Positions 4,748 through 64,000 of a DNA stretch of 64,000 nt are shown in pieces. The stretch is from the NCBI GenBank assembly GCA_003220685.1, contig QHTE01000048.1, forward strand, positions 95,029-159,028. Reading direction: 5' to 3'. A program made the position numbers and the translations under genes. Numbering within the stretch: the first letter of the stretch is position 1; each line of letters begins with the position of its first letter. The notes beneath the pieces are model-generated. The model did no database searches. It was not told the origin of the DNA and saw only the letters and a list, made by a program, of their open reading frames with translations. Source of the DNA: Candidatus Rokuibacteriota bacterium. GTDB taxonomy: Bacteria > Methylomirabilota > Methylomirabilia > Rokubacteriales > CSP1-6.

Positions 4748-5692
4748 ATGACAACCGTCGAGACCGCGCTGGGTCCGATCGCCACGACCGAGCTCGGACC
4801 CACCTTGATGCACGAGCACGTCGTCACGCGCTCGCCGGGCGTGCAGGAGAACTGGCCCCACCTCTGGGATCGCAACGCCATCCTGAGCATCGCCGAGCGC
4901 AAGATGGCCGAGCTCTACCGCCGCGGGATCCGCTCGATCGTCGACCTGACCACCGTCGATCTCGGCCGCGACATCGATCTGATCCTCGGGGTCGCGCGCC
5001 GCTCGCGTGTGCACATCGTCGTCGCGACCGGCGTGTGGTGGATGCCGCAGCGCTACTTCAGCGCCCACGGCGTCGACGCGGTGGCCGATCTGTTCATCCG
5101 CGACATCACGCAGGGGATCGGCACCAGCGGCGTGAAAGCCGCCATCATCAAGTGCGCCACCGACACGGCCGGGGTGACGCCGGTGATCGACAACGTCCTG
5201 CGCGCTGCCGCCCGCGCCCAGAAAGCGACCGGCGTGCCGATCTCGACGCACACCTGGGCGGCCGGCCGTACGGGTGAGCTGCAGCAGGCGATCTTCGCCC
5301 AGGAGGGCGTCGATCTGCGCCGCGTCATCATTGGCCACAGCGGTGACAGCGAGGATCTCGGCTACCTCCGCGGGCTGATGGAGCGCGGGAGCACGATCGG
5401 GATGGACCGTTTCGGGCTCGAGAGCTTCCTGTCGACGCCGAAGCGGGTCGAGGTGCTGGCGCGCCTCTGCGCCGAGGGCTACGCGGGCAAGATGGTCCTC
5501 TCGCACGACGCCAACTGCTGGACGGACATGCTCTCCGAGGAAGCCAAGCTTCGGACCCGGCCGCAGTGGCACTACAACCATATCTCCGACGACATCCTCC
5601 CGGCGCTCCGCAAGGCGGGCGTCAAGGAGGATCAGATCGAGCAGATGCTCATGCGGAATCCCCGGGCGATCTTCGAGGCGAAGAGCGCGTGA
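4748..5692 (+). CDS. phosphotriesterase family protein (PTE/PLL-like amidohydrolase)
   Basis: 314 aa. 'GPTLMHEHV' is the N-terminal His-x-His metal motif. The rest shows a TIM-barrel amidohydrolase pattern ('..IIGHSGDS..', '..VLSHDANC..'). Confidence 0.85.
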   Translation: MTTVETALGPIATTELGPTLMHEHVVTRSPGVQENWPHLWDRNAILSIAERKMAELYRRGIRSIVDLTTVDLGRDIDLILGVARRSRVHIVVATGVWWMPQRYFSAHGVDAVADLFIRDITQGIGTSGVKAAIIKCATDTAGVTPVIDNVLRAAARAQKATGVPISTHTWAAGRTGELQQAIFAQEGVDLRRVIIGHSGDSEDLGYLRGLMERGSTIGMDRFGLESFLSTPKRVEVLARLCAEGYAGKMVLSHDANCWTDMLSEEAKLRTRPQWHYNHISDDILPALRKAGVKEDQIEQMLMRNPRAIFEAKSA

Positions 5693-10669: not shown

Positions 10670-11518
10670 TCACCGATGCTCGAGCGAAACCTGCTCGGCG
10701 TACGAGGCGCGGTAGCCCTCGTAGGAGCGGGCGTAGGCGGCGCGGGCCTGCTCGTCCATGTCGGCTTTCGGTGCCGGCTCGAGCTCGAAGTGGCCGTACG
10801 TGTCGACCCCGCGGACGAGCATCGCCGGAGTCTTGTGCTTCACGCCCAGATGCCCGACCGAGGTCGGGACGTAGCTGATCGCCAGACCGATGCGGCGGCC
10901 GTGCGAGCGATTGGGCTCTGAACGGTGCAGGCAGAGCGTGTGGTGCAGCGAGAACTCGCCCGCGCGCAGGGGAGCGTGGACCGCGGGCGCGTCGTCGACC
11001 TCGCCGACGATCGCCTGGCCGGCGCGGTTCACGCTGCCGGCCACGACGCCGGCGCGATGCGGCCGCTGGCCCCCGTGATGACTGCCGGGCAGGAACTCCA
11101 TGCAGCCGTTCTCCGCCGTCGCATCGGTCAGGGCGAGCCACGCGGTCACGTGCACGTACGGGCGTAGCCCGAAGTAGGTCGCGTCCTGGTGCCAGGCGGC
11201 GATCGCCGCGCTCTCGGGCTCCTTGATGAACCACGTCGAGGTGTAGACGAGGATGTCCGGGCCGATCAGGTCCTCGACGGCGTCCAGGATCGCCGGATGA
11301 CGCGTGAGCGCGTGCACCCACGACAGCAGGACGTGCGTACGCGACCGGTAGCGCGCGTCGGTCCGGTCGGAGGTGAGCGGTCCACCCACCGTCGCCTCGA
11401 ACGCCTCGAGCTTTCGAAGGCAGGCGGCGGCTTCCCCGCGCGTGAGCGCGGCGTTCGGCGAGAGGAATCCGTCGCGCGCGTAGGCGTCGACCTGGGCCGG
11501 CGACAGCGTTTTCGGCAT
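10670..11518 (-). CDS. phytanoyl-CoA dioxygenase (PhyH) family Fe(II)/2OG oxygenase
   Basis: 282 aa. 'WHQDATYF..', '..[11 protein letters not shown]..' and '..[13 protein letters not shown]' match the PhyH HxD...H pattern. Confidence 0.85.
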
Positions 11519-22747: not shown

Positions 22748-23842
22748 CTACTCTCCGACGTCGACGATGGCGATGACCGGCCCGCCTCCCTGCGGTCCCT
22801 GGTGCATCGCGTCGACCGAGACGAACACGGCCGGATCGCCGATCGCGGCTGCCGCGACGCCGCCGACGGCGGCCTTGGAGTGGCGGTGGTGGTGCACGTC
22901 GGAGTCGTCGAGCATGATCTGACGCCGCCCGCGCAGCTTGGCGCGATGGTCGGCCTCGGACTTGATGAAGCAGTTGACCAGGCGCCCCCTGAGGTCCTCC
23001 GCGCGCGCCCGCTCCGGCAGGTCGAGCCCGGCGTTGCGGATCGCGGCGTAGATGCCGTCGATGTCGAGCGCGTCCTTCATGACGCTGTGACCGATGCCGT
23101 AGCGCCCGCCCGCGCCCGCCCTGTTGCCCATCAGGATGATCTGCGCGCGCGTCAGCTCGACGCCCGAGGAGCAGGAGGCGACCGACGAGTAGAGATCGAG
23201 GTCCTTGCAGATCTGCTCGGCGCGCGGCATCGGCAGCTCGCCGAGGGCGACCGCGATGCCGAGACCGGTGGTACCGTTCGACACGCCCATCGAGTCGTGC
23301 ACCTCGCAGGCCACGGTCTTGCCTCGGCGCTTGGCGTTCTCCACCCAGTCGACGGTGAGGAGCGGCGTCTTGGTCTGGACGTAGTGCACGTCCCTGGGGT
23401 CCTCGATGCCCGCGTTCTTCATCGCCGCCTTCACGCCCTCGGCCACGATCTCGACCATGCGCGGGCGGCCGATGTCCTCGGGCTGGAGCTCCGCGCTCAT
23501 CGCGGTGCCGATCACCAGGCGCGCCTTGTCGGCCGTGCCTTTCCGGTCGTTCCGCGCGAAGACGGTCGCGTGCGGCGTGATGACCCCGTCGCACCCGCCC
23601 GACCACACCATCGGGATCGTCGCGACCTCGGCCTCGCTGCGCTTACCGTGCTTGAGCAGCACGCGCCGGAAGGCGTGGTCCGCGAGCAGGCGGGTGAAGT
23701 CGTTGACCCCGCCGTTGCCCTCGGTCTTGCCCACGACAGCGACGACCTGGTCGGCGGTGAACTGGCCCGCCAGGATGCGCTCCTCGAGGCCGGAGGCGTC
23801 CTGTACGCTCTTGAGCTCGACCTTCGCTACTTCGACGGCCAT
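22748..23842 (-). CDS. ring-opening amidohydrolase, cyanuric acid amidohydrolase/barbiturase (AtzD/TrzD) family
   Basis: 364 aa, the AtzD-like length. '[16 protein letters not shown]' matches the family N-terminal motif as I remember it. The internally three-fold-repeated layout is consistent with the Toblerone fold. Confidence 0.8.
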
Positions 23843-29654: not shown

Positions 29655-31277
29655 CTACGACCCCGGCCGGGGGATCGCGAAGATGGTCACCGTGGCCGGC
29701 GCCGTCGGCGCGCCCCAGAAGTACGTCGCGCTTCCCGAGGTGGCGGCCACGTATTGCCGGCCGCCCGCCTGATACGTCACGACGCCGCCGTTCATAGGAC
29801 CCGGAACGTTGAATCGATGCAGCACGGCGCCGTCACGCGCGTCGAGGACGAGGAACGTGCCATCGAGCTCGCCCGTGAAGAGCAGGTCGGCCGACGTCGC
29901 CACGATCGCGGCGAGCATCGGGCGGCGTGAGGCGTAGCGCCAGCGAATCGTTCCGGTCGACGCGTCGATGGCCGTCAGCCAGCCGCGCGCCTGCTCCAGC
30001 GGCTCGGGTGACCAGCGCCCGCCCACGTAGTTCCGGCCCGGCACGTGCTGGAGGGTCTCCGCCTTCCTGAAGACGCCGCACCACTCGACCGAATTCACGT
30101 AGAGCGTGTTGATGCGCGGATTGAAGGCGGGGCCGTTCCACTGCACGCCGCCCAGCACGCCCGGACACACGTACACGCCCGCCGTGGTGAGCGGGACATC
30201 GACGTTCTCCCGTCGGGTCACCGCTACCTGATAGAGGTGCGCGCGTGTCTCCCGATCCAGGACGTGGAGCAGCCCATCCTTGCCGACCACCGCCACGAGC
30301 TGACGCCGCACGCCGTTGACCTCGGCGCTGAAGAGGGGGCTCGTCTGGGTCAGGTCCCAGTCGTGGAAGTCGTTCGGCACGGCCTGGTAGTGCCACACGA
30401 GCTTGCCGCTGCGTACGTCGAGGACGACCATGGAATTCGTGTAGAGGTTGTCGCCGCGCCGGACGTCGGTGTAGAGATCGGGCGCCGGATTGCCGACGGG
30501 GACGTACAGCAGTCCCCTGGCGGGGTCGAGCGAGAACGGCGTCCACACCGCGCCGCCGCCGGTGAGCACGTCCGTCGCCGACCACGTCTCGGCGCCGGGC
30601 TCGCCCGGTCTCGGCCGCGTGTTGAATCGCCACACCTGTTCGCCGTTCTCCAGACGGAAGGCGCCGACCCACCCCTTGATGGGTACTTCGTTTCCCGCCG
30701 GCCCGGCGATCACCAGATCCTCGACGAGGACCGGCGGCATCGTGAAGGTCTCTCCGATGTCGCCGTTCGCCGCCGCCCGCTCCCAGAGGAGTCGTCCACT
30801 CTCGGCGTCGATCGCCAGGAGATAGCCGTCGAGCGTGCCGCGGACGATCTTGCCTTCCTTCACGGCGACGCCGCGGCTCTGCGGCCAGTTCTCTCGGGCC
30901 TTGGGCACCCAGTCGTGTCGCCAGCGAACCTGGCAGGTCGCGGCATCGAGCGCGATCGTGGCGTGTGAGGTGGTGAGATACATGACGCCGCGGTAGACGA
31001 TCGGGTTCGTGTGAAACGGGCGGATCCCCCCGATCTCGTACGAGCACACCGGCCGCAAGGACGGTGCGTTCTCGGGCGTGATCTGCGTGAGCTCGACGAA
31101 GCGCTGTCCGCCGTAGTCATGGTTGGGCAGCAGCCAGTCCGACGCGTTGGAGGCCGCGGCGTTGAGCTCTGCCTGGGTCGGTCCTTGCTGCGCGCCGCCC
31201 GGCAGCACAACGAGCCCGACGAGCAGCCCGCTGACCACGAGGGTGAGCCCCGGCCATCGCCTCCCCACGCGGGTCAT
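29655..31277 (-). CDS. PQQ-dependent dehydrogenase (quinoprotein, methanol/ethanol dehydrogenase family), secreted
   Basis: 540 aa from MTRVGRRWPGLTLVV (signal peptide). 'DWLLPNHDYGGQRF', 'GLLYVPVGNPAPD' and 'HDWDL' are eight-bladed PQQ propeller motifs. The upstream 250 aa of the ORF are junk. Confidence 0.85.
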   Translation of the reverse strand: MTRVGRRWPGLTLVVSGLLVGLVVLPGGAQQGPTQAELNAAASNASDWLLPNHDYGGQRFVELTQITPENAPSLRPVCSYEIGGIRPFHTNPIVYRGVMYLTTSHATIALDAATCQVRWRHDWVPKARENWPQSRGVAVKEGKIVRGTLDGYLLAIDAESGRLLWERAAANGDIGETFTMPPVLVEDLVIAGPAGNEVPIKGWVGAFRLENGEQVWRFNTRPRPGEPGAETWSATDVLTGGGAVWTPFSLDPARGLLYVPVGNPAPDLYTDVRRGDNLYTNSMVVLDVRSGKLVWHYQAVPNDFHDWDLTQTSPLFSAEVNGVRRQLVAVVGKDGLLHVLDRETRAHLYQVAVTRRENVDVPLTTAGVYVCPGVLGGVQWNGPAFNPRINTLYVNSVEWCGVFRKAETLQHVPGRNYVGGRWSPEPLEQARGWLTAIDASTGTIRWRYASRRPMLAAIVATSADLLFTGELDGTFLVLDARDGAVLHRFNVPGPMNGGVVTYQAGGRQYVAATSGSATYFWGAPTAPATVTIFAIPRPGS

Positions 31278-31490
31278 TCTCGTCCCCCCACCCCCCAAAG
31301 TTACCGGCGCACGCGCACGCGGCTGGCTCTCCGTTACCGCGCGGACGGCATGTGTGTCAAGGGCGTACCGGGCACCAGGAACTATGAGCGCCTCGCACGC
31401 TTGGGGCCGCTGCGGTATCATCCCGTTCTCGATACCTCGGTGAGCATTCGCGGCGAGGCCAGGACGTGATGGGACGAAAGGAGTAGCGCG

Positions 31491-33659
31491 ATGACGGCGA
31501 TGACGAGAGCGCTGTGGCTCGGCGTGGCGGGAGTAGCGATTGCCCTGATCAGCGCGGGCTCGGTGGCGAGGCTCGGCGCCCAGCAGCCCAGCGTCGGCGC
31601 GGTGCCGATCGACGCCGACGACATCGGCGGCGTGGTGACTGGGCCGAGCGGGCCCGAGGCCGGCGTCTGGGTGATCGCCGAGACCACCGGGCTTCCCACC
31701 AAGTTCGCGAGGATCGTCGTCACCGACGACCAGGGGCGCTACGTGGTGCCCGATCTTCCGAAGGCGAAGTACACGGTGTGGGTGCGCGGCTACGGTCTCG
31801 TCGATTCGGCGAAGGTCGACGCCGAGCCCGGCAAGCAATTGAATCTCCGCGCGGTCCCGGCGCCGAACGCCGCCGCGGCGGCGCAGTACTACCCCGCCAT
31901 CTACTGGTACTCCATGATGAAGATCCCCGACGCCGACCAGTTCGGCGGCAAGAGCAACATTCCGGCGAACATCACGCAGAGCGACTGGCTCACGGTGGTG
32001 AAGAACCGCGCCTGCGTCGGCTGCCATCAGCTGGGCCAGCTGTCGACGCGGACGATCCCCGCCTCGCTCGGGGAGTTCGACTCAGGGGAGAAGGCGTGGA
32101 TCCGCCGCGTGCAGTCGGGCCAAGCCGCGACCTTCATGCTGAACCCGCTCACGCAGGTGCTCGGCGGCGTGCCGTTCAAGTATTACGGCGACTGGACCGA
32201 TCGCATCGCCAAGGGGGAATTGCCGCACAGCAAGCCGCCGCGGCCGCAGGGCGTCGAGCGCAACATCGTCGTCACGACATGGGAATGGGGCGACCCGAAG
32301 AAGTATCTGCACGACCTGATCGCGTCGGATCGTCGCTACCCGACGGTCAACGGCTACGGCAAGCTCTACGGCTCGCCGGAGTACGCGACCGACGACTATC
32401 CGATCCTCGATCCCAGGACGCACACCGTGACGACCTTCAGGGCTCCGGTGCGCGACGCCGACACGCCGGAAGCGCTCGGGCCCGGGCACGCCGCGCTCGA
32501 GAAGCCGATGGCGCCCTCGCCCTACTGGGGCGACGAGAAGCTCTGGGACACGAAGGCCAACAACCACAACGGGATGTTCGATCGCAAGGGCCGCGTCTGG
32601 TTCGCAGCGACGGTGCGGGGGCCCAAGAATCCCGACTTCTGCCAGAAGGGCTCGGACCATCCCTCGGCGAAGCTGTTTCCGCTCGAGCGCACGAACCGCG
32701 CGCTCACCTTCCTCGATCCGAAGACGATGAAGTACACGTTCGTCGATACGTGCTTCCAGACGCACCACCTGCAGTTCGGCTACGACGCCAACGAGACCGT
32801 GTGGACCAGCGGCGGCGGCCCGGTGGTCGGCTGGGTCAACACCAAGATGTTCGACGAGACCGGCGACGCGGCGAAATCGCAGGGGTGGACCGCGTTCGTC
32901 CTGGACACGAACGGCAACGGCAAGCGCGACGAGTACGTCGAGCCCGATCAGCCGGTCGATCCGACCAAGGACAAGCGGATCGCCGGCGGTTTCTACGCGG
33001 TGATGCCGAGCCCGGTCGACGGCTCGATCTGGGGCTCGGTCGGCGTGTTCGGCGGCACCGCCGCGGTCGTGCGGCTCGTGCCCGGCTCGAATCCGCCCGC
33101 GACCGCGCTCGCCGAGATCTACAACGTGCCGAAGCCGTACTTCGGGATCCGCGGCGCCGACATCGACAAGCAGCGTGTCGTGTGGGCGTCGATGGGGAGC
33201 GGCCACATCGGCAGCTTCGATCGGCGCAAGTGCAAGGGACCGCTCAACGGACCGAAGGCCACCGGCGACCACTGTCCCGAAGGCTGGACGTTCTATCGGT
33301 ATCCGGGTCCGGGCTTTCAGGGGATCGGCGAGAACAGCGCCGAGTCGAGCTACTACACGTGGGTCGATCAGCACAACACGTTCGGCCTCGGCGAGGACGT
33401 GCCGATGTCGACCGGTAATCTGAACGACGGCCTGATCGCGCTGAAGGACGGCAAGATGGTCGTGCTGCGCGTCCCGTACCCGCTGGGGTTCTACGCCAAG
33501 GGCTTCGACGGCCGCATCGACGATCCGGCGGCCGGCTGGAAGGGCCGCGGGCTCTGGACGACCAGCGGCGACCGGGCGCCGTGGCTCATGGAGGGCGGCA
33601 AGGGCAAGAAGCCGATTGCCGTCCACTTCCAGCTGCGACCCGACCCGCTGGCGCACTGA
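31491..33659 (+). CDS. secreted CarboxypepD_reg-like domain / single CxxCH heme-c motif / beta-propeller protein, function unknown
   Basis: 722 aa. Signal peptide, then an Ig-like 'GVVTGPSG..VWVIAE...DDQGRYVVPDLPKAKYTVWVRGYG', then the heme motif 'CVGCH', then a long C-terminal propeller-like region. Confidence 0.7.
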   Translation: MTAMTRALWLGVAGVAIALISAGSVARLGAQQPSVGAVPIDADDIGGVVTGPSGPEAGVWVIAETTGLPTKFARIVVTDDQGRYVVPDLPKAKYTVWVRGYGLVDSAKVDAEPGKQLNLRAVPAPNAAAAAQYYPAIYWYSMMKIPDADQFGGKSNIPANITQSDWLTVVKNRACVGCHQLGQLSTRTIPASLGEFDSGEKAWIRRVQSGQAATFMLNPLTQVLGGVPFKYYGDWTDRIAKGELPHSKPPRPQGVERNIVVTTWEWGDPKKYLHDLIASDRRYPTVNGYGKLYGSPEYATDDYPILDPRTHTVTTFRAPVRDADTPEALGPGHAALEKPMAPSPYWGDEKLWDTKANNHNGMFDRKGRVWFAATVRGPKNPDFCQKGSDHPSAKLFPLERTNRALTFLDPKTMKYTFVDTCFQTHHLQFGYDANETVWTSGGGPVVGWVNTKMFDETGDAAKSQGWTAFVLDTNGNGKRDEYVEPDQPVDPTKDKRIAGGFYAVMPSPVDGSIWGSVGVFGGTAAVVRLVPGSNPPATALAEIYNVPKPYFGIRGADIDKQRVVWASMGSGHIGSFDRRKCKGPLNGPKATGDHCPEGWTFYRYPGPGFQGIGENSAESSYYTWVDQHNTFGLGEDVPMSTGNLNDGLIALKDGKMVVLRVPYPLGFYAKGFDGRIDDPAAGWKGRGLWTTSGDRAPWLMEGGKGKKPIAVHFQLRPDPLAH

Positions 33660-54618: not shown

Positions 54619-55137
54619 TTATCGGCCGCCTGGGCGCGAGGTCACGTGCCCGCAGCGACTACACGTACGATTCGCCTCCGAGCCGTAGAACTCCTCGTAG
54701 GCGCGCGACACCGGGTCCTCGCGATAGTCGGCGACCTGCTTGACGCTCTGGTGCAGCTGTGCGCCGCACTGGTCGCAGTACCAGGTGAAGCGATCGCTCT
54801 CGCCGGCCCGCCGCTTGCGCTCGAGCACGAGCACGAACGCGTCGGGCGAGAAGCGCGGCGAGTGCGGCGTCCCCGCGGGGCAATAGACGATCTGGCCCTC
54901 TTTGATCACCGCGATCTTCTCGTCGCCCTCCGGCGTCCGGTAGTGGAGGTCCATGTCGCCCTTGATCATGTACATGACCTCGTCGCTCGGATCGCTGTGG
55001 AACTCGCTGCGAAACTCGCGGCCCCGCGCGACGAACGCGATGCTGTCGGGCGCCTGCCACAGGACCGTGTTGGGGCGGCCCGAGGCGCGGATCGTGCTCA
55101 TGACCTGACCCAGGTCGACCGCTTTCATCTCATCCAT
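54619..55137 (-). CDS. 3-hydroxyanthranilate 3,4-dioxygenase-like cupin with a C-terminal CxxC...CxxC site
   Basis: 172 aa. AAGGAG RBS inside the end of the upstream gene. 'EFHSDPSDEVMYMIKGDMDL', 'PAGTPHSP', 'WYCDQCG' and 'CSRCGH' match bacterial HAAO as I remember it. Confidence 0.8.
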   Translation of the reverse strand: MDEMKAVDLGQVMSTIRASGRPNTVLWQAPDSIAFVARGREFRSEFHSDPSDEVMYMIKGDMDLHYRTPEGDEKIAVIKEGQIVYCPAGTPHSPRFSPDAFVLVLERKRRAGESDRFTWYCDQCGAQLHQSVKQVADYREDPVSRAYEEFYGSEANRTCSRCGHVTSRPGGR

Positions 55138-56728: not shown

Positions 56729-57376
56729 TCATCGCCGTCGCAGCTGCCGCAGCTCACCGAGGGTCATGGCCGGAATGGTCACGCCGTTGCTGGCCATCCA
56801 TCCGGCCATCGACTGGCTGTTCGGCCAGGGCACGGTCTTCGTCATGATCCAGTCGCCCTCGACGACGTGCTCCCGTCCGAGCACGCGAAACGCGAACGAG
56901 TCGGGGGTGATTCGCTTGGCGGACAGGTCGAATTGCGCTCGGTCCTCCTCCACCTTGCGCATGTCCCACGCCGGGGGGATCGCGCCCACGCCGTCCGGGA
57001 AGCCCTTGGCCATCAAGCTCAGCACGAGGATCATGACGTGCGCGACTCGAGCCTGGTACTTGACGCGAAACGCTTCGGCGTCCTGAGCGCCGTGGACGCC
57101 GAAGAACAGGAACGTGGAGTCGGGCTGGGTCAGGTGCAGGATCTTTCGCGCTCGGGTGGCGGAGAGGTCCTCGAACAAGACTTCGTTATTCGTGAAGACC
57201 GAAAAGTTGTAGGTCCCCGTCGCGTCCTCGCGGACCGCCCTCGTCACCCGCATCTTGACCTGCCCCATGCAGCCCAGATCGGAGCAGCCCTTCCAGGTGA
57301 CGAGCGGCGACTGGGCCTCGAGGGATACCGGGAGCGCGAGCAGGCACCCGAGGGCAACGAGAGTTCTCGGCCGCAC
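56729..57376 (-). CDS. secreted hypothetical protein
   Basis: 215 aa from GTG 57376. Signal peptide 'VRPRTLVALGCLLALPVSLEAQ'. I recognise no family. The codon pattern is consistent with coding. Confidence 0.55.
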   Translation of the reverse strand: MRPRTLVALGCLLALPVSLEAQSPLVTWKGCSDLGCMGQVKMRVTRAVREDATGTYNFSVFTNNEVLFEDLSATRARKILHLTQPDSTFLFFGVHGAQDAEAFRVKYQARVAHVMILVLSLMAKGFPDGVGAIPPAWDMRKVEEDRAQFDLSAKRITPDSFAFRVLGREHVVEGDWIMTKTVPWPNSQSMAGWMASNGVTIPAMTLGELRQLRRR

Positions 57377-57389
57377 GCCCGCACCGCGC

Positions 57390-58052
57390 TTACTTGGTCG
57401 CGAAGCAGTAGAAGAGGCCGTTGCCTCCCGTGCTCTTGAGATCGTTCTGGCTACAGCCGCCGTCGGGCCCGCGCGAGGGATGCGACGAGTTCCAGGACTT
57501 CGACGCGTCGTCGTCGCGCAGCCCCTGTCGATCGTGATGGCCGACCATCGCCGCGCCCTGGCCGCTCTTCGTCCAGTTGCCGCAGGTGCGGTCCTCGCCC
57601 GCCGCAAACGCGGTGCCGTCCGGCTGGGAGCCCGTCAGGATGTCGTGCATGTTCGGCGTGTCGCCGCGCCCGTTGACCGTCTCGCCCTTCTCGGTCAGCG
57701 CCGTCTGCTTGTTGATGTTGTTGTTGCCGTGCAGCTCGGCCAGGTCCTTGGCGACGATGATGCCCTTGGCGTTCTTCCATGGGCCGCTACCGATCCGGTC
57801 GTGCGCGTTGACCGCGCCGGGGCCCTGCGTGCTCAGATACGCCTTCCAGGTCTTGGCGCCGGCGCCCGCCGTCGCGCCGAGCAGCTGGCAGAGCTGGTCG
57901 GCACCCACGAGGCCGCCGAGGTTCCCGCCCTTGCCGGGGCCAGCGCTGGTGATGAAGAAGCCAATCTCGGACTGCTGCGCCTGGCCGGTGCTGCCGCCGA
58001 GCGAGAGCAGCGCCGCCGACACGCCAACCGACAGCCAAATTCTCGGGCTCAT
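57390..58052 (-). CDS. secreted Gly/Cys-containing hypothetical protein (possibly DUF1554/lectin-like)
   Basis: 220 aa with a signal peptide. 'FFITSAGPGKGGNLGGLVGADQLCQ' and the C-terminal 'GLFYCFA' recur in secreted proteins of unknown function (from memory, weak). Confidence 0.6.
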   Translation of the reverse strand: MSPRIWLSVGVSAALLSLGGSTGQAQQSEIGFFITSAGPGKGGNLGGLVGADQLCQLLGATAGAGAKTWKAYLSTQGPGAVNAHDRIGSGPWKNAKGIIVAKDLAELHGNNNINKQTALTEKGETVNGRGDTPNMHDILTGSQPDGTAFAAGEDRTCGNWTKSGQGAAMVGHHDRQGLRDDDASKSWNSSHPSRGPDGGCSQNDLKSTGGNGLFYCFATK

Positions 58053-58081
58053 TCGGGTCTCCTTGTAGGGTCGTCGCGCGG

Positions 58082-58549
58082 TCAGGCCGTCGCGCCGGCG
58101 CGCCGCGCTTCGCGCAGGCCCGCGAGGATCGCCTCGCGGTCGAGGCTCATCTCCATCAGCGCGACCTGCGCCTCGTACACGTCCGCCGGCACCTGGTCGC
58201 GTACTTCCGGCTCGAACACGTGAAACACGGGGAGCCCCAACGGGACTCCGGCCAACGGGCCCGCGTAGGAGGGATCGCCGGCGACGACGGTCTGGGCGAG
58301 CGTCTGCGTGCTCTCGGCATCGGGCGTGCCGAGAAGGACCACCACGCCATTGCCGTGCTCGTCAGCGACTCGCTTCACCGCCGCCTGATCCTCCAGGCCC
58401 ATGGCGCCCGCCGCGGTTCAGACGTAGCAGGCGGTCAGGGTCAGCACCACCTCGGCGCCCGCGCGACTGGCGCACTCCGCCACCGCGGGGCCCGGCACGC
58501 CGTCGCGCTCACCGAGCGCGATGACCTTCTTGCCTCGAAGTTCCATCAT
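58082..58549 (-). CDS. grdA: glycine/sarcosine/betaine reductase complex selenoprotein A (UGA-Sec at 58418-58420)
   Basis: ORFs 58418..58669 and 58082..58402 are in frame. The joined product '[80 protein letters not shown]' matches GrdA, including the CxxU motif. AAAGGAG RBS. 155 aa. Confidence 0.85.
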
Positions 58550-58712
58550 GTGGCTCCTTTCTAATGGGGGACCCGCGAGGGGTCCCCCATACCCCTCCAC
58601 GCTCGCCAGCGCCCCGGCGGAGCCGTGGCGCTGGGCCTTTCTAGATGGGGGACCTAGACGGGTCCCCATACCCCTCCACGCTCGCCAGCGCCCCGGCGGA
58701 GCCGTGGCGCTG
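58550..58712 (-). repeat. tandem direct repeat (84 + 79 nt) of a two-hairpin element between grdC and grdA
   Basis: Units are 58550-58633 and 58634-58712, with a ~49-nt core that looks identical on reading. Each unit has the hairpin CAGCGCC-N13-GGCGCTG plus a second hairpin: ATGGGGGACCC-CTCGC-GGGTCCCCCAT (perfect 11 bp) in the grdA-proximal unit, bulged in the other. Each unit ends in TAGAAAGG. Confidence 0.8.
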
Positions 58713-58730
58713 CTCGACCACCGGCGGAGG

Positions 58731-60203
58731 TCACGTGCTGCCGGCGTTGCGCTCCAGGACGAGGGAGAGCCCGTCCGGCAGCTGCGTCATGCGTCCCAGG
58801 AACAGACTACCCTTGCCCGCGAACATCGTGCGCGTGAGGCGGCCCTCGGTGAGCGCGCGTCGCGCGTGACCGAGATACGGGATCGCCGAGGCGATGTGGC
58901 CCTGGGTCGGCGAGAAGCCCGGCATGCCCCGCGCGCGGACGAAGTCGTCGATGCTCTCGCGCGCGATCAGCTTCTCGACCACGGCCAGGCTCGCCAGGGT
59001 GCGGTAGTTGTTGAGCGGGACGTTGCCGCTCCCCGCGGGCTCGGTCGCCTCGGGGTTGTGTAGCTCGAGCGAGAACCGGTCCACGTCGAGCAACGTCAGT
59101 CCCACGCGGCCGAGCGGCTCGCTGTAGAGCGCCTTCATGACCGCGAGCGGCGCCGAGCCCGAGGCGACCTCGTGGCGGCCGATCGCGTCGAGCCGCAAGG
59201 TGGGCGAGACGCCGTCGTCGCGCGAGACGTGCGCGGCGAAGCCGGCGAGCACGTCCTCGACGATTGGCATCGCGTGCTTGACGTGCCCCTGGAATTTCAT
59301 CCCGAGCTTCGCCAGCGAGCCACCCGCCAGGACGACCACGTCGTCGTGCAGGCCGCTGCGGACCAGGGCCCCGGCCAGCATCAACGCGTGCATCGGCCCG
59401 CTGCAGAACGCCTTGACATCGCTGCCGGTCGCGCGGCCGCAGCCTGCCCATTCGGCCACCGCCTTGGCGACGTTGCCGCCGCCGCGCTGGTAGCGATCGC
59501 CCACCGCCTCCTCGCCGCAATTGATGACGTAGCGGACGTCGGCGGACGCGATCGCCCCGGGTCGCGCGAGCAGGTGACGCAGCGCCAGCGCCGCCGTTGC
59601 CTTGCACGCGAGATTCTCCAGCAACACCTGGCCGGTGAGCGTGTCGTCCTCGTCGTGCCCGGGCAGCATGGCGCCGAGGAGCCGGCCGTCCGCGCCTACG
59701 ATTCGCAGCGCGCGGTGCCGCTCGACGCGCTCCTCGAGCACGGCCGCGGTGACGCCGGGCGGTACGGTCGGGCTGCCGGCGGCGCGACCGATGACCGGGT
59801 GCGCGTCGAGCGCGCTTCGCGCGCGGTCGGCCAGCTCGCGGTCGAGCCCGAGCAGCTGGAAGCCGTCGCAGGCGGCCAACAAGCCGAAAAACTCGTCCTC
59901 GGGCATGATCTCGCCGTCGGGACCGAAGCGCGCCGCCCTCTCGATCGGATGACGATGCCAGGGAGTCGGCCGCGCCGCGAGCTCGTCCACCCCCATGTTG
60001 CCGATGAACACCTGGTTCGGCGCGTAGGCCTGCGCGACGTCCCAGGCGCGCAGATGCGGTCGCAGGAAGTCGATCGGGTCGTGCACCTCGCGCAGGACCC
60101 GCAACGGCTTGGAGCCGAGCCGGACGAGGCTCGGCACGTGCGCGAGCACGAGCGAGACCGCGCGAATGACGGGCATCCCGTCCGACGTCACGCGAGGCAT
60201 CAT
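58731..60203 (-). CDS. grdC: glycine/sarcosine/betaine reductase complex component C, beta subunit-like (thiolase-like fold)
   Basis: About 490 aa. '[24 protein letters not shown]' resembles the GrdC N-terminus as I remember it. '[15 protein letters not shown]' is a thiolase-like Cys region. ATGATG at 60198-60203 overlaps the araC stop; ATG 60176 is an alternative start. Confidence 0.8.
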
Positions 60204-60976
60204 ACCCTCTGGCTGGCTCGCAGCGCACGATAGCGCGCGGGTGTCAGCCCGAAGGCGGACTTGAACGCGCGGGTGAAATGCGCCTGATCGGCGAAGCCGG
60301 CGTCGCACGCCACCTCGACCAGGGCCCGCCGCCGGTGGATCAGCTCCCGCGCCAGGTCGAGCCGCCGCATGAGCAGATACCGGTACGGGCTTGTGCCGAA
60401 CATCATCCGGAACTGGCGGGCCAGATCGTAGCGGGTCAGTCCCGTAACGGACTCCAGCTCCGCCGAACGCACGACCCGAGTTCTCTCGGCGTCGAGGAAG
60501 CGGCGAGCGCGCTCGAGGGCGGCGGCATCGACGCGCCGCGAGGCTCGGGATGGCTGTCCCCCGCGTTCGGCGGCGAGCAGGCCTTCGGCCAGATCGACGA
60601 CGAGGCCGTCCACCGCCAGGGGCTCCGTCGGGAGTCGGAAGGTGGCGTCAATGGCGTGGGCCAACCTCGCGCTCGTCGACACCGGATCGCCCACGAACGG
60701 CAGCGGGCAGGCGCGGCCGCGGAGCGTTCGCAGCGCTTCGGCGAGCTGCGAGGGCTCCACGTAGACGATCCGATAGCCGAACCCCTCGGCGGTGCCGGCG
60801 CGGCCGTCGTGGGCCTCGTCCGGGTACAGCACGGCGACCTGGCCCGGCAGGCACGCCCGCGCCGCGCCCCGATAGTCGAAGACCTGGACGCCGCTGTCGG
60901 TCAGGCCGATCGCGTAGGTATCGTGACGATGCTTCTCGTATGCCCGGCCGGCGAACCACGCGCGGAACAGCTCCAC
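60200..60976 (-). CDS. AraC family transcriptional regulator (AraC_N-like sensor plus HTH_18)
   Basis: C-terminal 'LTRYDLARQFRMMFGTSPYRYLLMRRLDLAR..L....VACDAGFADQAHFTRAFK' is the AraC HTH. N-terminal 'GVELFRAWFAGRAYEKHRHDTYAIG'. Start placed at GTG 60976; GTG 61075 is possible. Upstream ORF-track residues are junk. Confidence 0.8.
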   Translation of the reverse strand: MELFRAWFAGRAYEKHRHDTYAIGLTDSGVQVFDYRGAARACLPGQVAVLYPDEAHDGRAGTAEGFGYRIVYVEPSQLAEALRTLRGRACPLPFVGDPVSTSARLAHAIDATFRLPTEPLAVDGLVVDLAEGLLAAERGGQPSRASRRVDAAALERARRFLDAERTRVVRSAELESVTGLTRYDLARQFRMMFGTSPYRYLLMRRLDLARELIHRRRALVEVACDAGFADQAHFTRAFKSAFGLTPARYRALRASQRV

Positions 60977-61064
60977 GCCCTCGGCCGGCCTGGCGCTGGC
61001 GATCCAGCCGCCGATCGGGTCCCCGCAAGATCGTTCAAGACCCGCGCCGCCCGATCTGGTCTCC

Positions 61065-61685
61065 TTGGTAGGCACTGGAGACAAGAGTACGACTACGGAG
61101 CAACTCGTCGCGTTCCTTCTCTTCGCGGTGGTGGCCGCGGTCACGCCCGGCCCCAGCAACATCATGGTGACGGCCGCCGGGGCGAACGCCGGCCTCCTCA
61201 AAGGGCTTCCGTGCCTCTTGGGTGTCGCGACCGGCATGGGGCTCATGATGTTTCTGGTGCCGCTGGGGCTGGGGAGCGTCGTCCTCGGCCATCCCCTCGT
61301 GCTGAAGACGCTCAACTGGGGCGGCGCGGCGTTCCTGCTCTGGCTCGCGTGGAGGATCGCGACCTCGATCGGTCTCGAAACGACTCGAGAGCCCCAGCCC
61401 GTCGGCTATTTCAAGGCTGCGGCTTTTCAGTGGGTGAACCCGAAAGCGTGGCTCGTGAGCGCGAGCGCGGCGGGAACGTTTCTCAGCGCGGGGGCGGGGA
61501 GCCCGGTCGTGCAGTCCGTCTATCTCGGCGGGCTGTTCTTCCTCGCGGCGCTGCCGAGCTGCTTCGTGTGGCTGGCGTTCGGCGCCACGGTCCAGCGCAT
61601 GCTCCGGAGCCCGCGCCGGCTCCGGGCGTTCAACGTCGCGATGGGGGTGCTCCTCGCCGTCTCGATCGTCCTCATCGCCGCGTAG
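61065..61685 (+). CDS. LysE/RhtB family amino-acid exporter
   Basis: 206 aa from TTG. 'LLFAVVAAVTPGPSNI' is the LysE N-terminal motif, with about 6 TM segments. Divergent from araC. Confidence 0.8.
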   Translation: MVGTGDKSTTTEQLVAFLLFAVVAAVTPGPSNIMVTAAGANAGLLKGLPCLLGVATGMGLMMFLVPLGLGSVVLGHPLVLKTLNWGGAAFLLWLAWRIATSIGLETTREPQPVGYFKAAAFQWVNPKAWLVSASAAGTFLSAGAGSPVVQSVYLGGLFFLAALPSCFVWLAFGATVQRMLRSPRRLRAFNVAMGVLLAVSIVLIAA

Positions 61686-62379
61686 ACTCGCGGCCCCCCT
61701 CGCGAGTCTCCACCGGGCTCTGACCGGCGCTCGTCGCCGTCTCGGGCGCCAGCGGAATGACACCGCCCGGCTCGCCGGCCAGGATCCAGTCGATGAGCAG
61801 GCGATAGCGGTCCGTCGGCACGGCGCCAACCAGCGAGAGCTTCTCGTTGAGGACGACCGTCGGCAGGCCGGACACGCCGAACCACGCGGCACCCTCGGCG
61901 CAGTCCCGCAGCACGGCCTCGTACGCCTCGCCGGCGTAGTCGGCCTCGAAGCGCGCCGGATCGAGCGCGGTCTCGCGGAGAAGGGTGCGCAGCACCTCGG
62001 GGCGCGAGATGTCGAGGTTGTCGCGAAAATGCGCGGTGAAGAGGCGCTCGTGAAACCGTTCGAACGCGGCTTCGCCCTGGAGCTCGGCGCACTTGGCGGC
62101 TGTCAGCGCCGGGACGCTCGAGGACGGCAGCGGGGTGTCGATCGCCGGCGGGACGAAGAACGCGCGCGGCTCCTCGGCGCCGACGCGCTGCCGGCCCTCG
62201 CGCGTCTTCTGCGTGACGCGCCGGTCAGGCTGCTCGCCGGGAATCAGCGGGAAGGTCCGCCAGTGGAGCCTGACGCGCTCGCCGTAGGCCCGCTGGATCT
62301 CGCGAAGCCGCACCGCGGCGTTGTAGCACCAGGGGCACAGGTAGTCGGAGAAGACGTCGAGCCGGACGGGTGCCGTCAT
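61672..62379 (-). CDS. DsbA/FrnE-like thioredoxin-fold oxidoreductase (CPWC active site)
   Basis: 235 aa. 'LDVFSDYLCPWCYNA' N-terminal motif. The ATG overlaps the grdB stop (ATGA at 62376-62379). Confidence 0.8.
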   Translation of the reverse strand: MTAPVRLDVFSDYLCPWCYNAAVRLREIQRAYGERVRLHWRTFPLIPGEQPDRRVTQKTREGRQRVGAEEPRAFFVPPAIDTPLPSSSVPALTAAKCAELQGEAAFERFHERLFTAHFRDNLDISRPEVLRTLLRETALDPARFEADYAGEAYEAVLRDCAEGAAWFGVSGLPTVVLNEKLSLVGAVPTDRYRLLIDWILAGEPGGVIPLAPETATSAGQSPVETREGGRESTRR

Positions 62380-63695
62380 TCGCGCCCGAACACCGTGGGT
62401 TTCGCGACCTCGGTCCGGAGCGCTTGCAGCGCCTGCTCGACGATGCGCCGCCGCAGCGCCTTCTCGTCCTCGGGCGAGAGGTCCGCGCTGCCGAGCGGAT
62501 GGATGATGCCCGCGGCGGACACGATGCGATTGGCGCCGACCATTACCGCGACCGGCGTCATGGTCGAGACCTGCACCGTCGGCAGCCCCGCCCGCTCGAG
62601 CTCTCGCGTGATCGCTGCGCCGCAGCGAGTGCTGGTGCCTCAGGTGGAGGTGAGGATGACGGCGTCGACGCCGGCCGCGCGCAGCTTTTCCGCGATCTCG
62701 CGGCCCATGCGCGCGCTCTGGGCGAGCGTGGTCGCGACGCCGACCGTTGAGTAGATGGTTTCATGCAGCTTGCCGATGGCGCCGCTCTGCTCCAGCTCGC
62801 GGGCGACGTCGACCGGGACCAGACGGTGCGGATCCTGCTTCACCCAGGTCGTGTCGTAGCCGCGATGAGGATTGTCGTACTGGGCCGCGTCGAGGCTCGA
62901 CTTGCCCTCGATGCTGTAGGCGCCGTAGCGCGTCGCGTTCAGCGCCTCGATGCCGTCGGGGTTGCCGCGCGGGACCAGGCCGCCGTCGGTGACGAGCGCG
63001 ATCGTCGCGCCGGCGAGCGTCTTGACGAGCCGCGGCGCGGCGACGGGCGGAAACGCCGGTCTCGGGACCTCGGTCGTGAAGGCGCGGCCGGCCAGCTTGT
63101 CGAGCAGCATCGCGACGGCGCGGTCGGCGGCGTTGGCGCCGGCGACGATATTGCGCGTCACACCGCGGGCGAAATATCCGTGAGCTGCCGGGGCGCCGAT
63201 CGCCTCGCCGCGGGCGAGCTTCAGCCCGAGCGCGACGAGCCGCTGCACTTCCGGGAGCATGCGCGTGGCCTCCGCGCCGGTCTGGACGACGTAGACCTGA
63301 CGGCGGTAGAGCTCGACGCCGGGATTCTCGGCGTGCATGCCGGTGACGGTCGGAATCTTCAGCTCGGCCTGCGCGGCGGCGCAGAGCGCGCCGCACGCGA
63401 CGCCGTAGCGGCCCGCCAGGAACGCGGGCCCCGCGACCAGCAAATCGGGGCGCGCCGCGGCGACCAGCGCGACCAGCTCGGTGGTCGCGCGCTCGGCCTG
63501 CTCGGCGGCGTAGTTGTCGCCACAGATCACCGTCGCGACGACCGTGCCCGCGTCGCCGAGCGCCTGCTGAACGGCCCGCGCGGCGCCGATGGCGCCGTCG
63601 ACCACCTGCGGCCCGACGCCGGCTTTGTCCTCGCCGCCGAGCTGGCCGAAGAACTGGTTGAGGTAGCAGACAACCCGCAAGGTCTCAGCTGCCAT
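62376..63695 (-). CDS. grdB: glycine/sarcosine/betaine reductase selenoprotein B-type subunit (UGA-Sec at 62640-62642)
   Basis: ORFs 62640..63698 and 62376..62576 are in frame with no intervening stop. 'LRVVCYLNQFFGQLGGEDKAG' at the N-terminus and '..AVILTST-U-GTSTRCGA..' match GrdB. About 439 aa. ATG 63695 overlaps the upstream stop (TGATG); GTG 63698 is an alternative. Confidence 0.85.
62612..62628 (-). promoter_or_regulatory. candidate SECIS-like stem-loop downstream of the grdB UGA
   Basis: Sense strand TCGCTGC-GGC-GCAGCGA (7-bp stem) begins 12 nt 3' of the UGA at 62640-62642. Not modelled energetically. Confidence 0.3.
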
Positions 63696-64000
63696 CACCG
63701 CACCTCCGCCATCACTCTGGTCGCCCCGACCTGCTCGATCGCGCCGCAGAGCCCGCCGTAGGTGGCGCGCGTCTCGCCCAGGAGCTTCGACGCGAGATCG
63801 TCGGCGCCGATCACGCGGTCCATCGCCGGCAAGGTGATCGGCTCCTGGCTGCTCCCGACGTTCACCAGCGCGTCGACTCCCGGAAAATCGAAGAGCAGCA
63901 TGCCCTCCGCGCTACCGTCGGTCGACATGTCCTCGACGACGGCCGTCGTCTTGACGCCGAGGGCTTCGCACTGCGCGGCCGCCTGCGCCATGTCGACGTG
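63695..64000 (-). CDS. grdE: glycine/sarcosine/betaine reductase component B proprotein (GrdE/GrdG/GrdI-type), C-terminal part; continues beyond the window
   Basis: The frame is open to the window end. '..QCEALGVKTTAVVEDMSTDG...VNVGSSQEPITLPAMDRVIG' resembles the GrdE-family C-terminal region as I remember it ('..CKALEEAGIKTV...GNANEVITLPPMDKVIG'). Its stop overlaps the grdB start. Confidence 0.65.
   Translation of the reverse strand, partial: HVDMAQAAAQCEALGVKTTAVVEDMSTDGSAEGMLLFDFPGVDALVNVGSSQEPITLPAMDRVIGADDLASKLLGETRATYGGLCGAIEQVGATRVMAEVR

Follow-up and report, generated by a model that had tools for sequence, protein, structure and literature searches.

A glycine reductase-like selenoprotein locus without GrdD in Candidatus Rokuibacteriota, with a FrnE-like protein as candidate redox partner

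Introduction

Glycine reductase and the related Grd enzymes are the textbook example of Stickland reductases that conserve energy under anaerobic conditions, and almost all that are known come from Firmicutes, with a few from other anaerobes. A group of grd-like genes lies at the end of a 64-kb stretch of Candidatus Rokuibacteriota DNA (positions 1 to 64000, here called the window), where homologs of grdE, grdB, grdC and grdA, all on the minus strand like the other genes of the locus unless stated otherwise, are accompanied by genes for a DsbA-like protein with a CPWC motif, a LysE-family exporter and an AraC-family regulator. The host, placed in this phylum by its GrdC homologs, is an uncultured soil Rokubacterium with a high G+C content and probably a facultatively aerobic way of life. 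The question raised by this locus is what kind of enzyme it encodes, and how that enzyme would be re-reduced, when neither grdD nor thioredoxin genes are seen beside it. The original prediction, made from the letters of the DNA, had described an atypical glycine reductase-type system in which the CPWC protein could serve as the reductant. On the evidence below, we judge it on balance probable that the genes encode a functional Grd-type selenoenzyme that does without GrdD and has a FrnE-like protein from its own operon as redox partner, and that the locus belongs to a large nonclostridial lineage of Grd clusters with GrdC and no GrdD.

Results

Organization of the grd genes

The gene order described in the original prediction is present in the sequence, and the protein families were confirmed by profile searches (Table 1). 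Its three start/stop overlaps were likewise all seen: the grdE stop and the grdB ATG share TGATG (63693-63697), the grdB stop and the ATG of the FrnE/DsbA-like gene share ATGA (62376-62379), and the araC stop and the grdC start share ATGATG (60198-60203). The same overlaps or near-overlaps were found again in other Rokubacterial species, and for that reason they are not attributed to chance. Six contigs from soil metagenomes or metagenome-assembled genomes (MAGs) contain an exact match to the DsbA-like protein of the window, and these sister contigs extend the locus beyond position 64000. They supply the rest of grdE (420 amino acids [aa] in full), a 2-hydroxyacid dehydrogenase gene 9 nucleotides (nt) upstream of it, and then a divergent Amidohydro_2 gene. 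No grdD, trxA or trxB was found on them in the approximately 10 kb past the window, which answers the earlier concern that these genes might lie just upstream of position 64000. Within the window, too, no homolog of GrdD, TrxA or TrxB was detected by tblastn or by hidden Markov models (HMMs) built from canonical proteins, as had been claimed.

GrdC without GrdD

To place the locus among its relatives, the 80 best GrdC-bearing loci in one-genome-per-species collections were surveyed with 10 kb on either side of each. Nine of these loci belong to Rokubacteria/Methylomirabilota and have GrdC proteins 83 to 89% identical to that of the window. The other 71, with 46 to 56% identity, are spread over Chloroflexota/Dehalococcoidia, Desulfobacterota, Bacilli (Lentibacillus, Cytobacillus, Alkalihalobacillus and Ammoniphilus), Entotheonella, Latescibacterota, Microthrix, Armatimonadota and others. 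Three canonical loci, from Enterococcus gilvus, Acetoanaerobium noterae and a Photobacterium sp., were taken as controls from the large replicons of a plasmid collection.

All three controls carry grdC-grdD and trxB-trxA, in E. gilvus in the order trxB-trxA-grdA-grdC-grdD-grdI-grdH. A panel of tblastn queries together with an HMM detected GrdD in none of the 80 surveyed loci, in none of the six sister contigs and nowhere in the window. The sensitivity of the model was adequate, since it still reached a remote PlsX in locus L044; that weak match belongs to a housekeeping plsX-fabG cluster and was rejected as a GrdD. The usual order in the GrdD-less loci is grdE-grdB-grdC-(trxA)-grdA. A trxA gene is present in 30 of the 80 and a trxB gene in 15, and trxA adjoins grdC in 30 of the 71 non-Rokubacterial loci; neither gene was found by tblastn or HMM in any Rokubacterial locus of the survey. 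The lack of thioredoxin genes, which had been taken as an oddity, is thus common among the relatives.

A neighbor-joining tree set the 3 GrdD-associated GrdC proteins apart from the 80 without GrdD, a split recovered in 50 of 50 bootstraps, and mean identity was 45% between the two groups and 55 to 57% within them. GrdC without GrdD is therefore a property of a clade, and the rule among the 80 closest GrdC-bearing species genomes. The absence of grdD that had marked the locus as atypical is real at this locus; as a peculiarity of it, the claim falls, since no relative in the survey has the gene either. We found no papers on GrdD-less clusters, and none joining glycine reductase with Rokubacteria, in the literature searched; this large and diverse clade appears to be undescribed there.

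An in-frame TGA (58418-58420) forms the selenocysteine (Sec) codon of grdA within a CxxU motif (CYVUTAAG). Cys258 of GrdC, counted from MPVIRAV and equal to Cys266 of the 489-aa product, is invariant and aligns with the acyl-accepting Cys112 of FabH (PDB 8vdb).

One surveyed cluster is of separate interest. In Lentibacillus kapialis, an aerobic halophile related to Bacillus, the genes are ordered grdE(GrdI-like)-grdB-grdA-trxB-grdC-trxA without grdD (L074:5859-16619), directly followed by genes for a YedE-like transporter, selD and selB, making up a compact selenium-utilization island.

The FrnE/DsbA-like protein

The CPWC motif of the DsbA-like protein occupies residues 15 to 18 (62326-62337) and leaves no room for a signal peptide, so the protein is taken to be cytoplasmic. 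The nearest solved structure is that of the cytoplasmic FrnE of Deinococcus radiodurans (5CNW, E value of 3e-10; also 5CP1). A C-terminal CxxxxC tail is a defining feature of the D. radiodurans FrnE structure; the Rokubacterial protein lacks it, having no Cys in its last 70 residues. AlphaFold2 models were too poor for a fold search, with a predicted local distance difference test score (pLDDT) of 40 for the FrnE-like protein (single sequence) and 43 for GrdC (24 close homologs).

The FrnE-like gene follows grdB, overlapping it or separated by a few bases, wherever the region is covered in a Rokubacterial genome (L008, L009, L011, L012, L014, L015 and the window's own lineage). The first Cys codon of its CPWC motif is TGC or TGT in the window (TGC, 62335-62337), L008, L009, L011 and L015. 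In L012 (6793-6795) and L014 (6142-6144) the same codon is TGA, giving UPWC. There, the start and the 14 codons before the TGA are kept in frame, and gene callers shorten the protein to 209 aa. Read in this way, the operons of L012 and L014 are predicted to encode three selenoproteins. An attacking CxxC residue that alternates between Sec and Cys is the classic mark of a catalytic redox residue, and this supports a redox role for the protein. The suggestion that the CPWC protein is the redox partner of the system gains from its coupling, its conservation and the Sec/Cys switch; the accompanying statement that it occupies the thioredoxin position does not hold, as trxA in the sister phyla usually adjoins grdC. 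Reduction of GrdA by the FrnE-like protein is what we infer from these features.

The main rival to such a role in recycling the Se-S bond is one of protection. The FrnE-like protein might act as a protector or repair isomerase for the Sec and Cys residues of GrdB and GrdA under O2, with catalytic electrons drawn from housekeeping thioredoxin. FrnE of D. radiodurans, its nearest relative of known structure, is described as a disulfide isomerase connected with stress (PMC6627142). Coupling of the Rokubacterial gene is with grdB and not with grdA, the neighborhood is rich in O2-dependent enzymes, and related FrnE-like selenoproteins stand alone. The state of GrdB points the same way. Its Sec codon (in-frame TGA, 62640-62642) lies in the motif TSTUGTSTRC, and Rokubacterial GrdB proteins have UGTSTRC in place of the canonical UGTCTRC, so that the first Cys of UxxCxxC has become Ser. 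The CxxC beside the Sec of GrdB has been described as shielding it from oxidation, and it is altered in the fluoroacetate-type FarB as well (PMC10838667). However, other phyla with the same UGTSTRC form of GrdB carry trxA and no FrnE-like gene, and the Sec/Cys switch would suit either role, which sequence alone cannot separate. We regard the protective role as possible, if unlikely.

A protein with UPWC and 31% identity to the Rokubacterial one is encoded directly after grdA in a Desulfobaccales MAG (L028:11955-12581). It was considered as independent support for a linkage between FrnE-like and Grd proteins and was dropped after its relatives had been collected from sediment and peat metagenomes (80 contigs, L090-L169, 55 to 91% identical), of which 78 have UPWC with a TGA codon. 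None of the 80 has a grd gene nearby, and they have no conserved neighbor. The FrnE-like family as a whole is not specific to Grd systems, and its linkage with grd genes is solid in Rokubacteria only; FrnE-type selenoproteins as such are already known to be widespread (e.g., PMC6627142). As a side observation, copies of the L028-type UPWC gene that are 90 to 92% identical in DNA share the gene only, with unrelated flanks, which suggests mobility or a hypervariable context for this stand-alone gene.

The GrdE-like and GrdB-like subunits

The substrate-specific subunits speak to whether this is a glycine reductase at all. The full-length grdE-like gene (L002:5854-7116) matches PF09338 with 305 bits. 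In the alignment, all Rokubacterial GrdE-like proteins read LRGFM, a gap of three residues and GRSVTTW where canonical GrdE has SGNC followed by VSACDK, and the pyruvoyl-forming Asn-Cys site is gone, with a 3-residue deletion and no Cys left. The pyruvoyl group of GrdE is derived in Clostridioides difficile from Cys242, after cleavage of the proprotein at Asn-Cys, and a part in substrate binding has been suggested for a second carbonyl, in GrdB (PMC9908766, the latter in its discussion). These cysteines are missing from the betaine-type GrdI and the fluoroacetate-type FarE, neither of which is a proprotein (PMC10838667). In lacking the site, the Rokubacterial GrdE-like subunit resembles GrdI or FarE. 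Without the Asn-Cys site it should be unable to form the pyruvoyl cofactor, and for this reason glycine or sarcosine is an unlikely substrate. The designation as a glycine reductase-type locus in the original prediction accordingly needs revision, since a glycine reductase is probably not what these genes encode.

No known substrate class is named by the profiles. GrdB falls below the equivalog cutoffs for glycine (TIGR01917, 472 versus 602), sarcosine (NF040794, 492 versus 800) and betaine (GrdH; NF040795, 456 versus 775), and the GrdE-like protein is far under the models for GrdG and FarE (FarE, NF053623, 165 bits versus a cutoff of 675). A test for betaine reductase thus failed, with GrdH below its cutoff and an alpha subunit that is of the unprocessed type with a motif unlike that of GrdI. 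Among the 51 non-Rokubacterial GrdD-less loci with a GrdE homolog, 8 have an Asn-Cys type, 4 a GrdI type and 39 another cysteine-free variant; because of these 39, most of the clade is assigned an uncharacterized substrate specificity. Two neighbors were tried as clues to the substrate and set aside. The upstream 2-hydroxyacid dehydrogenase matched glyoxylate reductase, phosphoglycerate dehydrogenase and formate dehydrogenase about equally, generic matches that name no substrate, and the NitT/TauT-type ABC transporter of L012, L014 and L015 lies below all equivalog cutoffs.

These data bear directly on the reading that the locus encodes an ordinary glycine or sarcosine reductase, with grdD, trxA and trxB elsewhere on the chromosome and the DsbA-like, LysE and AraC genes as incidental insertions. 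Housekeeping thioredoxin systems are universal, GrdA and GrdC both score above their equivalog cutoffs, and the region inspected was the window and a further 10 kb. Set against this are the GrdE-like subunit without Asn-Cys, a GrdB under all three substrate-specific cutoffs, and the contrast between 0 of 80 relatives and 3 of 3 canonical loci in having grdD near grdC. Incidental insertion fits poorly with a DsbA-like gene that every Rokubacterial species examined has kept, coupled in the operon and subject to purifying selection. An ordinary reductase is therefore improbable.

Selection and selenocysteine decoding

Ratios of nonsynonymous to synonymous substitution (dN/dS) among Rokubacterial species were 0.04 to 0.25 for the dehydrogenase, GrdE-like, GrdB, FrnE-like, GrdC and GrdA genes, with 0.10 to 0.21 for the FrnE-like gene and 0.04 to 0.15 for grdA. 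Purifying selection thus acts on all six genes. In every locus examined (more than 80), GrdA and GrdB have kept their TGA codons. One of the alternatives named beforehand as overturning the prediction, that these genes are unexpressed relics, here in decay within an aerobic lineage, can be dismissed with near certainty: the aerobic-type neighborhood and split matches that could be frameshifts speak for it, whereas the dN/dS values of every gene, the Sec codons and downstream frames kept in all species, and the soil metagenomes, in which the best 120 of 6,848 GrdC matches are all 82 to 100% identical, speak against it.

The split or partial matches to grdB and the FrnE-like gene occur in three long-read MAGs (L008:6736-7788, L012:5434-6751 and L015:5866-7231). 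They are confined to these assemblies and are more simply explained by indel errors; probably they are not pseudogenes. Separately, synonymous divergence between L002 and L009 is 0.08 in grdB and the FrnE-like gene, as against 0.22 to 0.34 in the flanking dehydrogenase, grdC and grdA genes, a pattern suggesting that the lineages have recently recombined in the grdB-frnE segment.

Spacer and flanking genes

The coordinates of the features are collected in Table 1. The spacer between grdC and grdA holds a tandem repeat, each 79-nt unit of which forms two G+C-rich hairpins. The second hairpin ends 3 to 10 nt before the grdA Shine-Dalgarno sequence, and the consensus fold has three compensatory pairs. 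Two copies are present in the window and some strains, whereas further strains of the window's species have a single copy, as does L009 (10531-10618); the module also lies at L002:12081-12261. In L012 (11450-11632) an analogous unit was doubled independently to give two, and six other species have none. The module has no other occurrence in the window. No Rfam family matched anywhere in the window at the gathering threshold, and at an E value of up to 1 the spacer gave only a chance Chlorobi-1 fragment; a glycine riboswitch or other known RNA was ruled out on this ground. The module is probably a lineage-specific mRNA stem-loop that affects stability or the expression ratio. A scan of 57200-62500 for promoters and terminators found none, and a tRNA scan of the window found no tRNA or tRNA-Sec.

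The lysE gene is convergent with the FrnE-like gene and divergent from araC (whose product is 258 aa as called in the sister contigs), and is also present in L008, L009 and L011. L012, L014 and L015 have a same-strand NitT/TauT-type ABC transporter in place of lysE and araC; lying between the DsbA-like gene and grdC, it makes a single unbroken operon, and the transporter is a possible handle on the substrate. The Cys-rich 220-aa protein after grdA is conserved in L007 to L010, that is, in the lysE/araC version of the operon only, and its membership in the system is doubtful.

The O2-dependent setting noted at the outset was confirmed for 3-hydroxyanthranilate dioxygenase (3-HAO), PhyH and the pyrroloquinoline quinone (PQQ) dehydrogenase, and two luciferase-like monooxygenases are also present in the window. 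Elsewhere in the window, a strong match (461 bits) to the AtzD/TrzD ring-opening amidohydrolases of the cyanuric acid/barbiturate type (22748-23842, minus strand) and a member of the phosphotriesterase family (4748-5692, plus strand) are encoded among peptide ABC transporters, which points to scavenging of heterocycle or xenobiotic nitrogen.

Table 1. Features of the grd locus and its surroundings (window positions unless a locus is named)
Feature	Position	Strand	Evidence and remarks
grdE' (3' end, 101 codons; alpha subunit, substrate-specific protein B)	63695-64000	minus	stop TGA 63695-63697; PF09338, 36 bits
grdB-like selenoprotein B, 439 aa	62376-63695	minus	PF07355, 452 bits; TIGR01918, 516 bits (cutoff 65)
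FrnE/DsbA-like thiol-disulfide oxidoreductase, 235 aa	61672-62379	minus	PF01323, 86 bits (cutoff 25.6)
LysE/RhtB-family exporter	61065-61685	plus	PF01810, 70 bits
AraC-family regulator, cupin sensor domain and helix-turn-helix	60200-60976	minus	PF02311 and PF12833
grdC, protein C beta subunit, thiolase/FabH-like	58731-60200/60203	minus	NF040746, 585 bits (cutoff 450); PF19364
Tandem repeat of 79 nt (x2), grdC-grdA spacer	58556-58712	minus	Tandem Repeats Finder: period 79, 2.0 copies, 92% match
grdA selenoprotein A, ~155 aa	58082-58549	minus	NF040748, 194 bits (cutoff 130); PF04723
Secreted Cys-rich protein, 220 aa, 30 nt 3' of grdA	57390-58052	minus	weak DUF1554 match, below cutoff
3-Hydroxyanthranilate dioxygenase (3-HAO/HAAO)	54619-55137		O2-dependent
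PQQ dehydrogenase	29655-32027		
PhyH	10670-11518		O2-dependent
NitT/TauT ABC transporter (ATPase, permease, SsuA-like binding protein)	L012:7443-9995, L014:7443-9992, L015:7246-9786		

Discussion

Proposed mechanism

The homologies suggest a Grd-type activity, namely reductive cleavage of X-CH2-COO- to yield an acetyl group. The steps that follow are modeled on homologous systems; the absence of the Asn-Cys site from the GrdE-like subunit is an observation. A substrate X-CH2-COO-, probably one whose X leaves readily, for example a quaternary or tertiary ammonium compound such as betaine or some other alpha-substituted acetate, would bind to the GrdE-like and GrdB pair without Schiff-base activation. 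Sec352 of GrdB would displace X, and the carboxymethyl group would then move to the Sec of GrdA. GrdC could turn the resulting carboxymethyl-selenoether into an acetyl thioester, leaving GrdA oxidized in an Se-S state. Classical GrdD, a PlsX-like protein, forms acetyl phosphate (PMC9908766, citing Andreesen 2004). Without such a protein, the acetyl group would probably not leave in that form but as acetate or acetyl-CoA, a step that is speculative. The FrnE-like protein would re-reduce the Se-S bond of GrdA, of GrdB or of both, filling the operon-encoded role that TrxA holds in many clusters of the sister phyla. The AraC-type regulator presumably controls araC-grdC-grdA and the divergent lysE exporter.

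Several points weigh against a functional GrdD-less selenoenzyme with a FrnE-like partner. The lost pyruvoyl site of GrdE speaks against glycine yet does not exclude it, and GrdD, thioredoxin and thioredoxin reductase could sit elsewhere in the genome, the region inspected being 10 kb on either side of the locus in each genome together with the 64-kb window. Selenocysteine insertion sequence (SECIS) hairpins 3' of both UGA codons were no better than in shuffled sequence, in DNA of 71% G+C. Proteins with the DsbA fold often serve for oxidation or isomerization and not for reduction. All 80 metagenomic relatives of the L028 protein are without a grd neighbor, and in other phyla roughly half of the loci without GrdD have neither a trx gene nor one for a FrnE-like protein. 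The operon thus need not encode a reductant of its own, and housekeeping thioredoxin may do the work.

Significance

Taken more broadly, and only tentatively, the GrdD-less clusters could be a phylum-spanning class of selenoenzymes, largely outside the strict anaerobic fermenters and mostly nonpyruvoyl, that act on alpha-substituted acetates and in which GrdC alone finishes the reaction to acetate or acetyl-CoA; in Rokubacteria, thioredoxin would have been displaced by a FrnE-type Sec/Cys oxidoreductase that is a third selenoprotein in some species. A noncanonical form of the enzyme may be widespread: outside the classical fermenters, the sampled loci nearest to this GrdC have no GrdD and, most often, a nonpyruvoyl substrate subunit. 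New substrates, and possibly a different product, would be implied, and the reaction could serve assimilation or detoxification rather than a gain of ATP, with a possible role in abundant uncultured bacteria of soil and sediment. Annotation pipelines label such genes glycine reductase or betaine reductase, probably wrongly in places, and these labels may misdirect metabolic reconstructions, for example of trimethylamine production or of reductive glycine pathways. The FrnE-like Sec/Cys partner offers a concrete hypothesis for thioredoxin-independent recycling of selenoprotein A.

Comparison with known systems

The clostridial glycine reductases of Eubacterium acidaminophilum, Clostridium sticklandii and C. 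difficile have the same homologous GrdA (CxxU), GrdB (STUG), GrdE-family and GrdC proteins, and the selenoether-relay chemistry is presumably shared. The Rokubacterial operon differs in having no GrdD, trxA, trxB or Asn-Cys site, and in the UGTSTRC motif of its GrdB. Betaine reductase (GrdH/GrdI), represented by E. gilvus pCR1A (L087), likewise has no pyruvoyl-forming Cys in its alpha subunit and needs no Schiff base. However, GrdI reads SGSFMP(C/S)SSK where the Rokubacterial protein has RGFM and GRS on the two sides of its 3-residue deletion, no BCCT/OpuD betaine transporter is present at the Rokubacterial locus, and E. gilvus keeps GrdD and TrxAB. The fluoroacetate reductase FarB/FarE of Synergistota is a precedent for an unprocessed alpha subunit, an altered CxxC beside the Sec and a nonamine X-CH2-COO- substrate; it differs in using the canonical GrdA and protein C of its host and in coming with a radical-SAM enzyme and an antiporter (PMC10838667).

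For the redox partner, D. radiodurans FrnE (DR_0659) and the FrnE-type selenoproteins have the same DsbA fold, an N-terminal CPWC, a cytoplasmic location and Sec/Cys variants within the family, whereas identity to D. radiodurans FrnE is low and the Rokubacterial protein is coupled within a grd operon. The logic proposed here is the same as that of D-proline reductase (PrdABC), a Grd-related selenoenzyme, which has its own electron transfer protein, PrdC, with Sec or Cys depending on the species (PMC3091704), in place of thioredoxin, and makes no acyl phosphate. PrdC, in contrast, is RnfC-like rather than of the DsbA fold, PrdA is pyruvoyl dependent, and GrdA and GrdC have no part in that system.

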